Source: Bacilli bacterium
Lineage (GTDB): Bacteria > Bacillota_I > Bacilli_A > RF39 > UBA660
DNA length: 64,000 nt
Direction: 5' to 3'
Assembly (NCBI GenBank): GCA_022795155.1
Contig: JAAWGF010000001.1
Location: 4,533-68,532, forward strand
Shown: positions 18,001-21,000 of the stretch, in pieces
How positions within the stretch are numbered: position 1 is the first letter of the stretch
Layout of the letters: every line of letters begins with the position of its first letter
Made by a program: the position numbers

Positions 18001-21000
18001 TTTTTAGTATGTTTGTTGAAAATGTAAGTATTGGTATTATTATTTCATGTTTACTTATAATTATTTATCGTTATATAAGGTATAAAAAGGTTGATTATTT
18101 GATGATTGCAACAATGTTTTTTTCAACTATTGGACTAATCATTATGTTGAGTAGTCCAGGAACAAGAAATCGAATTGACGATATGCCAGAATTTTCTAAT
18201 TTAGACTTAATTTCAAAACTTTTTATTACTATTCCGCGACAATTAAATTATGTTTTTGTCAAAAATAGTTTTTTACTTTTTCTATTATTAGTTGTAATAA
18301 ATTATTATATATTGAAAAATTTTAAGTCTTTAAAAAGATTATTATTATTAATTTTTATGAATTTAATACCAATTATAACACTAGTTCAAAATCAGTATTA
18401 TAATGTTTTTGGTCATGGTATTAAATATATAGCTGTTTTACTAGACTGCAGTAATCTTTTTGTCTTTTCATATTGGTTATTATTTCTAATCATATGTATA
18501 TATTTAGTTATTAAATTTAATAAAACGAATAATCATAAAGTGTTATTTTTCTTTATTATAGCGGTAATAAATCATTTAGCGATGTTAATTTCTCCACTGG
18601 CTGGAGGAAGAACTTCATTTTTATCTACTATAATGTTGTATATTTGTGTTATAATCTTATTGGATGGCTTACAACTTAATTTATTAGATAATAAAAAATT
18701 TATCAGATTTAATATTATCTGTTGTGTCATGTTATCAATAATTTTTATTTCATATTATTCTTTTTGTCATATATTAGATAGCAAAAGACAAAACTATATA
18801 GACGAGCAAGTATCATTAGACAAGGAAGAAATTGAAGTAATAATGTTACCAGAATTTTATTTATGGAATGCAAATCCGTGGAATGATTGGCATTTATATA
18901 CTTTTAAAATGTATTATAAAATACCAGATAATACTCAGATAAAATTAATAAAATTCAATTTTAAAAAATGAAATATAATAAATTATAATAAGTCAATATT
19001 AGGGGGAATGTAAGATGAAATTATCTATTGTAATACCATGTTATAATGAAGAAAAAAATGTTGAATTAATTCATGATGCTGTTGTTAAATTATTTTATAG
19101 TAAGAAAATTTCTTATGAGATGATTTTTGTTAATGATGGTTCGCGCGATAATACTATTGGCGAATTAAAAAAATTGGTTGATAAAAATGAAGCAAATATT
19201 AAAGTTGTCAATTTTTCTAGAAATTTTGGTAAAGAAGCGGCTATGTATGCTGGGCTTAAAGAATCAAAAGGGGATTATGTTTCAATAATTGATGCTGATA
19301 TGCAACAAAATCCGTCTTTACTTTTAAAGATGCTAGGTATTTTAGAAGAAAATGAAAACTATGATAGTGTAGCAGCTTATCCAGAAAAAAGAAAAGAGAG
19401 CAAAGTTTTAGTTTTCTTTAAAAAAATATTTTATAAATTAATAAATAAAATTGTTGAAATTGAATTTGTTGATGGTGCAAGTGATTTTAGAATGTTTAAA
19501 AGGCCAATGGTTGATGCAATCTTAAGTATGCAAGAGTACTGCCGTTTTTCTAAAGGAATATTTAGTTGGGTAGGTTTTAATACTTATTATATGCCATATC
19601 AGGTTAGTGAAAGGGTTAATGGGACAAGTAAATGGTCATTTTGGAAATTGTTTAAATATGCGATTGATGGTATTGTCTCTTTTACTACAGCGCCACTTAG
19701 AATGGCAACAATTTTAGGATTATTTATTTCTTTTGGTTCTTTTGTATATTTTCTTATTGTTATTATTCAAACCGTGATTTGTGGCATTGATGTTCCAGGT
19801 TATGCATCTTTAATTGGTATTTCATTATTACTAGGTGGAATTCAACTATTATCTTTAGGTATTATAGGAGAGTATTTGGCACGTAATTATATGGAAAATA
19901 AAAAAAGACCAATATATATAGCAAGAGAGGTTTTAGAAACTAAAAAGGCAAAAAAGTAATTAATGTCAAATTTAACTAAGTATTTCATATAATATTATGA
20001 AGTAATGGTTAATTTGACTTTTTTTCTTTTTTATGTTATTATTTCGTTTGTAATGGCGCATTATTCTAGTCAATACAATCTATTATGAAGGTGGGCCTAA
20101 AAATCCACTAAAGAGCATATCTGTGAAACTTTTGGTGCTTGCTTCTTACGCCCAGTTTGGGGTGAGTGCTGGAAGGAAGAGTTCTAGGGCGACCGTAATG
20201 GCATACGTTATCGACCCAGTTCTTGAGGAGACCCATTCTTGTGTTTAGCCTATACACATTATGTTGATGGACTAAATACGAAATGGGATTGAACCTACTA
20301 TGTGATGAAAGTTGCGAGTAGTGTAGCTTGTCTTGCGTGAAAATATGGGAATAACTGATCTACCAAAAATTTTTTGGCCAAAAAGATTTGCGGATTGCAG
20401 TTTGAAACTATTTTTGCAAAAAAGAATTAATTTTAGATTGATTGTCGAGGAAATCTCCTAGAATGTTTTTTAAGATAGGATTGCAGTGCGTACTAAGTGG
20501 TAATCAAGTCATATGTTTGGTAACAATATATCAAATTTTTTAATGGGGAACCGCTTTTTGGTAACGAAAAGTAAAATTTGGGGAAATCCAACTTGACCTA
20601 AGACGTAAAGTTTACTATTTTAAAGCCATTTATGTTAAAAAGGGATTTAACAGCCCTTTTTTTATATGTCTTTTATTAGCAAAAAAGGAACTGCCGGATT
20701 AACAGTTCCAAAAAAGAATAAAAAGGGGTTGGCTAGTGTGATACTAGCTCCAATTCGCTTAAATCGAATTGGTACTGTATATACTAATCGAAAATACTTA
20801 AAAAGTCAATGCTTTTTTAAAAAAATTTTTAAATTATTAAAAAAAAGGTTGAATATCGAACAATTGTTTGCTAAAATATTATTGGAAAGTCGGTGATATA
20901 TTGGAGTTAACTGAAGTGACAGGGATAGGTTCAAAGTCTATTATAACTTTAAATAAATTGGGCATTTTTAGTATTGAAGATTTAGTAACGTATTATCCTT

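Follow-up and report, generated by a model that had tools for sequence, protein, structure and literature searches.

OLE (Ornate Large Extremophilic) RNA, known since 2006, has an Rfam family of its own, and thousands of Bacillota genomes have been catalogued as carrying it. Here, an OLE RNA locus is analyzed in a 64,000-nt stretch of a Bacilli bacterium genome (assembly GCA_022795155.1, contig JAAWGF010000001.1, positions 4,533 to 68,532 of the forward strand); this whole stretch is termed the window, and coordinates are counted from its first nucleotide. According to published work, the class occurs almost only in Bacillota (PMC11332333), and about 25% of its positions are >97% conserved (PMC12265935). 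Binding of the protein OapA has been mapped to sites in or near P2 and P4a of the RNA (PMC12265935), and a GTDB-wide survey found OLE and OapA to be almost completely mutually inclusive, with the genomes that lack OapA carrying only defective-looking OLE (PMC11332333). The role of OLE in a membrane-localized, stress-tolerance ribonucleoprotein is known only from experiments in Halalkalibacterium halodurans (PMC12265935, PMC11332333). In the cryo-electron microscopy (cryo-EM) structure of the Clostridium acetobutylicum OLE dimer, a symmetric kissing loop is formed by L9.3, whose central tetranucleotide switches between palindromes (PMC12286853). Recurrent gene neighbors of OLE include cell-wall and DNA-repair genes (PMC12265935).

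Assignment of the locus to OLE RNA

An earlier note, made by reading the DNA sequence by eye, had described the interval 20014-20663 as a large structured RNA of about 0.6 kb, running from promoter to terminator and of the giant ornate kind, and had placed it in an unassigned class or among the divergent members of a known one. When the whole window was scanned with Rfam 15, the OLE family (RF01071) was matched within this interval at 396.8 bits (E = 4.4e-113; gathering score, 50), with 609 nt aligned to positions 1-616 of the 616-position model, untruncated. Only one other match in the 64 kb, a glmS ribozyme, was above the curated thresholds. Since the RF01071 match extends over the full model, the promoter-to-terminator interval is read as an OLE RNA gene, and we put at about 97% the probability that this gene, spanning 20014-20663, stands alone and encodes a canonical, full-length OLE RNA. 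Thus, the large structured RNA of the earlier description stands, while its unassigned or divergent status does not. OLE had been on the shortlist of that note, and the covariance model search it proposed returned this family. The reason given there for doubting OLE, the want of an adjacent oapA, was correct and unusual as a description of the context; it does not exclude OLE, as adjacency to oapA is a frequent association and not a defining feature of the RNA, and its absence is no bar to membership in the class. The RNA class is therefore already known, and the only peculiarity of the locus is its genomic context without an adjacent oapA.

The base-pairing pattern among relatives was examined by collecting OLE loci from species-representative genomes with a degenerate form of the most conserved 33-mer of the RNA (20478-20510), which pulled out at least 120 loci. 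The window and the 21 closest OLE sequences (65-96% identity) were aligned with MAFFT (alignment A3, 22 sequences), and the Rfam alignment of the window sequence served to project the structure onto A3, a procedure that somewhat favors the unslid structure, with a margin that is nonetheless very large, and that misses some of the pairs in arms that align poorly (A3 helices 10 and 12, and P1). Of the 159 pairs in the RF01071 model, 151 were found to be present in the window, with 136 of the 151 being standard pairs. Across A3, 84.9% of cells were standard-paired compared with 37-48% when the 3′ partners were slid by 1-3 columns, both sides were changed in 98 of the 155 pairs, and none of 500 shuffles reached the observed pairing and covariation values. 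The covariation in relatives that the earlier note had wished to see checked is thus present. All of the long arms that are lost in the published reduced variants were kept and no large deletion was detected relative to the model; thus, the window RNA is a full-length OLE and not a reduced variant.

Two structural elements were analyzed further. The 6-bp helix that would close the 5′ and 3′ ends (P1) is unannotated in the Rfam OLE consensus structure and had been noted earlier with the caution that it could have arisen by chance. When P1 was re-tested by anchoring on conserved flanks, all five inner pairs were found to form in 28 of 33 anchorable OLE loci, at a constant distance of 9-10 nt past the conserved UUUAC, and the two strands covary (ATGGC/GCCAT, GTGGT/ACCAC, GTGGC/GCCAC, GTGAT/ATCAC, and ATGGT/ACCAT). 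P1 is a real helix. The loop L9.3 tetranucleotide was palindromic in relatives without exception, reading GGCC (14 sequences), AGCU (5), or GUAC (1), and the element needed for the intermolecular bridge B3 is present in the window RNA.

The composition of the interval is in agreement with what had been read by eye. Neither strand has an open reading frame (ORF) of 50 aa or more between 19960 and 20665; the two longest reach 49 and 42 aa. The 20161-20220 segment was recounted at 32/60 G+C compared with a window mean of 15.5 per 60, and the OLE interval, at 36% GC in a window of 25.8% GC, is the most GC-rich 609-nt stretch of the 64 kb. The short direct repeats were present where they had been reported and coincide with OLE elements: (i) the TTTGGTAAC repeat, which occurs twice, corresponds to two conserved hairpins of OLE domain 2 with GGUAAC loops; (ii) the second GGATTGCAGT copy sits inside the most conserved OLE core; and (iii) the conserved GGAUUGCAGU core is one source of the interior direct repeats.

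Promoter, terminator, and divergence from a sister species

The TTGACT-17-TATTAT promoter of the earlier description was found in place, scoring 10 of 12 consensus matches plus a TG extension and ending 9 nt upstream of the first helix. A single match of this kind means little alone in AT-rich DNA (8 promoter-like matches were found in the window compared with 8.6 expected from shuffles), and the promoter is credited because it is conserved in a sister species (L011, CAYOYB010000011.1) and in other relatives. L011 is collinear with window positions 13842-21751 at 85% nucleotide identity, with its OLE 95.6% identical. Conservation in L011 begins exactly at the -35 box, with the -35, TG, and -10 elements kept and the upstream sequence diverged. 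Of 22 relatives, 21 have an equivalent promoter whose end lies 8-17 nt upstream of P1, with 8-12 of 12 consensus matches (at least 9 in 20 of them). The hairpin and T7 terminator was likewise recovered, past the last conserved base of the RNA, and is supported by two related loci: in L011 the stem is kept and the loop is changed, while metagenome contig L190 (OLE 86.5% identical) has a non-homologous hairpin followed by T8 at the same place. Transcription is predicted to start at about 20049-20051.

Between the P1 strands, the window and L011 differ by 21 substitutions (3.6%), compared with 15% divergence in the flanks, so that the OLE RNA evolves about fourfold more slowly than the genes on either side. 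Fourteen of the substitutions fall at paired positions, and a standard pair is kept in 7. The 20 other relatives share 163 invariant columns, and neither the window nor L011 has a change at any of these. From these comparisons, the OLE copy looks intact and functional, and it is under strong purifying selection.

Genomic context

Upstream of OLE lies a cell-envelope glycan cluster, which encodes a polysaccharide deacetylase, several GT2 and GT4 glycosyltransferases, an O-antigen-ligase-like protein, an acyltransferase, an Alg14/Alg13-like pair, and a DUF6056/GT_STM0557 protein, and which ends with a GT2 gene (19015-19959). Downstream, a small RNA encoded on the opposite strand comes first, followed by recG (20868-22898). 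The gene order GT2-OLE-small RNA-recG was also found on the 8.1-kb contig L190, and the order OLE-terminator-small RNA (opposite strand)-recG was restricted to the window, L011, and L190. The RecG proteins of the organisms with this detached arrangement are only 69.5% identical. Thus, the detachment of OLE from oapA is real, rare, and conserved in a small clade. The genes that usually follow oapA (those for an ~500-aa protein, CotE, and bS16) were not found in the 64-kb window, which places the ancestral oapA neighborhood elsewhere.

Glycosyltransferase genes also flank OLE in two loci that keep oapA: L016, with the order GT4-OLE-oapA (positions 1-2454), and L069, with the order OLE-GT2-oapA (oriented positions 174-2415), the L069 GT2 being 63.5% identical to the window GT2 at 19015-19959. 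The association of OLE with glycan genes would therefore predate the loss of oapA adjacency. Another group of relatives with 79-80% OLE identity (L127-L129 and L130-L139) has the order rpsU (bS21)-yqeY-OLE-oapA-(~500-aa protein)-cotE-rpsP-khpA or rnfC-rnfD-OLE-oapA-(~500-aa protein)-...-cotE; no OLE neighbors of these types (rpsU, yqeY, cotE, rpsP, khpA, rnfC, or rnfD) were found in the window. The bS21 gene beside OLE fits the published bS21-OLE interaction, and CotE near OLE is consistent with published work in which OLE correlates with sporulation genes.

The host was examined by its gene content and relatives. The window carries a gene of the LCP family (LytR_cpsA_psr), a family associated with cell-wall polymer attachment in Gram-positive bacteria, and the nearest named relatives are metagenome-assembled genomes (MAGs) titled uncultured Bacilli, Erysipelotrichaceae, or Tenericutes. 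The L011 record is titled 'uncultured Muribaculaceae bacterium', as are several other OLE-bearing MAGs. This title looks mislabeled, since L011 is collinear with the window and carries OLE, a class found almost only in Bacillota.

Weighing of alternative explanations

A number of observations weigh against the canonical, full-length OLE gene proposed here. First among these is the context: OapA is encoded immediately 3′ of OLE in 107 of the 120 species-representative loci listed, and 12 of the other 13 are cut off too near OLE, such that oapA is downstream in 107 of 108 informative loci and the sole informative exception is L011, the sister of the window. The missing neighbor that the earlier note had pointed out is thus truly unusual. 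A profile constructed from 100 ORFs directly downstream of OLE in other genomes (160-245 aa, with conserved FDMIGV and DVIGD motifs) detected no OapA among all window ORFs of at least 40 aa with filters off across the 64 kb, the best score being E = 0.058 for a 40-aa ORF. A profile search of a protein collection gave at least 7994 OapA-like proteins, the best 120 of which were listed, and the candidates P0034 and P0082 were traced to other species with a normal OLE-oapA pair. Within the RNA, a 4-bp hairpin (model positions 424-435) is missing, as the sole missing element; it is also missing in 19 of 19 closer relatives and is present only in two Clostridium sequences. Taken by itself, the terminator hairpin is weak (-8.8 kcal/mol, z = -1.6), and it was missed by the terminator scan because its loop exceeded the loop-length limit of the scan. 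Furthermore, the ends of the transcript (~20050-20663, roughly 614 nt) are predictions, and the host is placed taxonomically by the titles under which its relatives are recorded, with that of L011 inconsistent.

Other explanations were considered in light of these points. Assignment to a new large structured RNA class, or to the ROOL, GOLLD, HEARO, or raiA families as a divergent member, would account for the size, the GC enrichment, and the atypical neighborhood, and for nothing more; it is refuted by the whole-window and permissive Rfam scans and keeps a negligible probability, as OLE was matched at full length, the other four families gave no match at the gathering threshold in the whole window or at E ≤ 1 within 19900-20900, and nothing besides OLE was below E = 0.1 in the permissive re-scan of this region. 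A degraded protein-coding gene that has lost its reading frame is just as remote: nothing was found in its favor, with all ORFs in the interval at most 49 aa, and it is refuted by the conservation, which tracks base-pairing through the compensatory changes and not codon periodicity, together with the lack of a significant OapA profile match, the 76-aa ORF at 20666-20896 just downstream of OLE having scored E = 3.3. The loss of an otherwise near-universal oapA adjacency could also suggest that a rearrangement split the RNA gene from oapA and left a decaying, non-functional relic. This was judged very unlikely in view of the unchanged clade-invariant columns, the low divergence from the sister species inside OLE compared with the flanks, the retention of pairing at half of the substituted paired positions, and the promoter and terminator kept in three lineages.

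The remaining question is where OapA is encoded. We consider it highly probable that oapA is encoded elsewhere in the genome, given the published co-occurrence of OLE with OapA (PMC11332333), the intact state of the OLE copy, and its P2 and P4a regions, which in A3 are essentially identical to those of relatives whose oapA lies next to OLE. A functional OLE without OapA, in which the clade has lost oapA and the RNA works by itself or through a different membrane partner, perhaps one linked to the adjacent cell-wall glycan genes, is an unlikely alternative to which some results do lend weight. No OapA was detected in the 64-kb window, in the 1.1 kb that follows OLE in L011, or on L190 (8.1 kb), and the detached arrangement has persisted across organisms with the RecG divergence noted above while OLE remained fully conserved. 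Counter to this, the survey found OapA-less genomes to carry only defective-looking OLE (PMC11332333), yet the window OLE is not defective; its protein-binding regions are as in relatives with an adjacent oapA; and the search extended over about 64 kb of the genome. If this clade of low-GC Bacillota, known only from metagenome assemblies, did lack OapA, its OLE would do without a protein regarded as essential for bringing the RNA to the membrane.

Proposed function

With a canonical OLE RNA and an oapA encoded at a distance as the preferred reading, a function can be proposed by analogy with the genetics and biochemistry of H. halodurans and with cryo-EM structures (PMC12265935, PMC11332333, PMC12286853). 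The ~610-nt transcript would fold into the canonical OLE structure and, as described for H. halodurans and C. acetobutylicum, may dimerize with itself, partly by way of the palindromic GGCC loop. The membrane protein OapA would bind the RNA in or near P2 and P4a, placing it at or in the membrane, and the resulting ribonucleoprotein may help the cell to withstand short-chain alcohols, cold, excess Mg2+, and poor carbon sources. OLE would terminate on its own at this locus, with its partner oapA most likely located elsewhere in the genome.

A small RNA between OLE and recG

The element between OLE and recG is predicted to be a small RNA (Table 1). It is single-copy in the window, has a fold z of -5.1, and is ~99% identical between the window and L011. 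A metagenome scan with an 18-mer of the small RNA recovered at least 120 loci, the invariance of the 18-mer being an artifact of this locus retrieval, and a covariance model built from two small-RNA sequences matched 98 of the 98 metagenome loci searched (33-118 bits). In these comparisons, 97% of cells were paired compared with 13-51% in slid controls. Covariation was detected in 9 of 9 terminator pairs and 5 of 8 helix 1 pairs, with helices 1 and 3 covarying, and G-U pairs fix the strand. A near-consensus TTGACA-17-TAnTAT promoter was found at a fixed distance from the small RNA in about 90% of the loci. The small RNA adjoins recG in at least 60 of the 120 loci listed (tool count, 76) and is divergent from recG in those checked (the window, L190, and L229); its neighbors on the other side vary and are mostly convergent, with OLE adjoining only in L190 among the loci listed. 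No Rfam 15 family matched the small RNA, permissive thresholds included, where only noise was returned, and a literature search gave nothing relevant on a recG-associated small RNA. Overall, from the sequence comparisons, this element looks like an undescribed, widespread small-RNA family of low-GC (21-35% GC) bacteria sampled in metagenomes. Its unpaired C-rich stretch, CCAACCCCUUUUU, may act on Shine-Dalgarno regions by pairing. Pairing with the recG leader, as assessed by eye, looked poor in the window, and neither L011 nor L190 conserved it.

Two contigs from independent assemblies of the same species (Logan contigs L002 and L003) end inside the small RNA at about window positions 20739-20742, ~80 nt past the OLE terminator, and contigs L004 and L005 end inside OLE. 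Strain variation or low coverage is possibly behind these breaks.

Table 1. Features of the OLE RNA gene and of the adjacent small RNA, with coordinates in the window
Feature	Coordinates	Strand	Details
Sigma-70-type promoter of OLE	20014..20042	+	-35 TTGACT 20014-19, 17-nt spacer, TG-extended -10 TATTAT 20037-42
OLE RNA, Rfam RF01071 alignment span	20037..20645	+	Covariance model, pairing, covariation
Closing helix P1, 5′ strand	20052..20057	+	AAUGGC; pairs with 20625-20630
Palindromic GGCC in loop L9.3 of the long P9 arm	20376..20379	+	Kissing loop, dimer bridge B3
Most conserved OLE core	20478..20510	+	GGAUUGCAGUGCGUACUAAGUGGUAAUCAAGUC; 33-mer; columns invariant in alignment A3
Closing helix P1, 3′ strand	20625..20630	+	GCCAUU; 9-10 nt after conserved ...UUUAC
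Intrinsic terminator of OLE	20637..20663	+	8-bp stem AAAAAGGG/CCCUUUUU, 9-nt loop, T-run 20657-20663; string AAAAAGGG-(9-nt loop)-CCCTTTTT + 7 T
Small RNA (predicted)	~20775 to 20681	-	~95 nt; transcribed away from recG
Small-RNA promoter	20809-20781	-	TTGACT-17-TAGTAT
Small-RNA hairpins	20772-20750, 20748-20732	-	
Small-RNA unpaired stretch		-	CCAACCCCUUUUUAUUCUUUUUU; between the second hairpin and the terminator
Small-RNA terminator	20709-20687, to 20681	-	9-bp hairpin (20709-20687) + U6

Other features of the window

The glmS ribozyme (RF00234, 79.5 bits) was located at 6381-6528 on the reverse strand, upstream of a GlmS-type ORF (4526-6349, reverse strand) with GATase and SIS domains. This arrangement is ordinary, and the same pair is present on L190. 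An NCBI MAG contig (L001) is 99% identical to window positions 9015-23017 and diverges ~120 nt after recG. Past this point, L001 (from position 14000) has an integrase-bearing island with integrase, AAA_25/DnaB_C, and HTH genes, while the window (from ~23017) has N6-methylase and specificity-subunit genes (23345-25717), along with gene fragments of the same kinds (28369-28929 and 29243-30187). The region downstream of recG thus looks like a strain-variable insertion site, as judged from these two assemblies.

Significance

Any standard Infernal annotation would label the OLE locus. Its value lies in part in serving as a clean positive control for the reading of raw sequence by eye, by which the RNA, promoter, terminator, and closing helix were all found. 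The small clade is furthermore a rare natural case in which an intact, monocistronic OLE is split from oapA, and it could help to test whether co-transcription matters. At this locus, OLE sits between genes for cell-wall glycans and one for a DNA-repair helicase, two categories that have been listed among its recurrent neighbors (PMC12265935). The small-RNA family divergent from recG may hold more interest than the OLE finding itself.

Comparison with known systems

ROOL, GOLLD, HEARO, and the raiA motif are, like OLE, large ornate bacterial noncoding RNAs, and they differ from the window RNA in architecture, context, and sequence and structure. Closer to it are the reduced OLE variants 1 and 2 of the TANB77 and RF39 clades (PMC11332333), whose hosts are likewise uncultured, low in GC, and derived from metagenome assemblies. 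Close relatives that lack long arms were also found (L061, L029, and L096 at A3 positions ~215-265; L107, L068, and L037 at ~340-385); unlike variants 1 and 2, the window RNA keeps the arms that are deleted in these six sequences. In its nearest sequenced relatives (L014, L115, L100, L016, and others, with 76-81% OLE identity) the same RNA is found with its own near-consensus promoter; unlike in the window, oapA begins just after OLE. When compared with the full-length OLE (RF01071) of H. halodurans and C. acetobutylicum, the window RNA has no downstream oapA, lacks the 4-bp hairpin, and carries a 12-nt insertion in one loop, and its host, at 26% GC, is known from metagenome assemblies only and is no cultured extremophile. 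The H. halodurans OLE is inside a long polycistronic cluster (PMC12265935), whereas the window OLE has its own promoter and terminator. With these full-length RNAs, the window RNA nonetheless shares its length class, helices, invariant nucleotides, P1, L9.3, and the P2/P4a regions.

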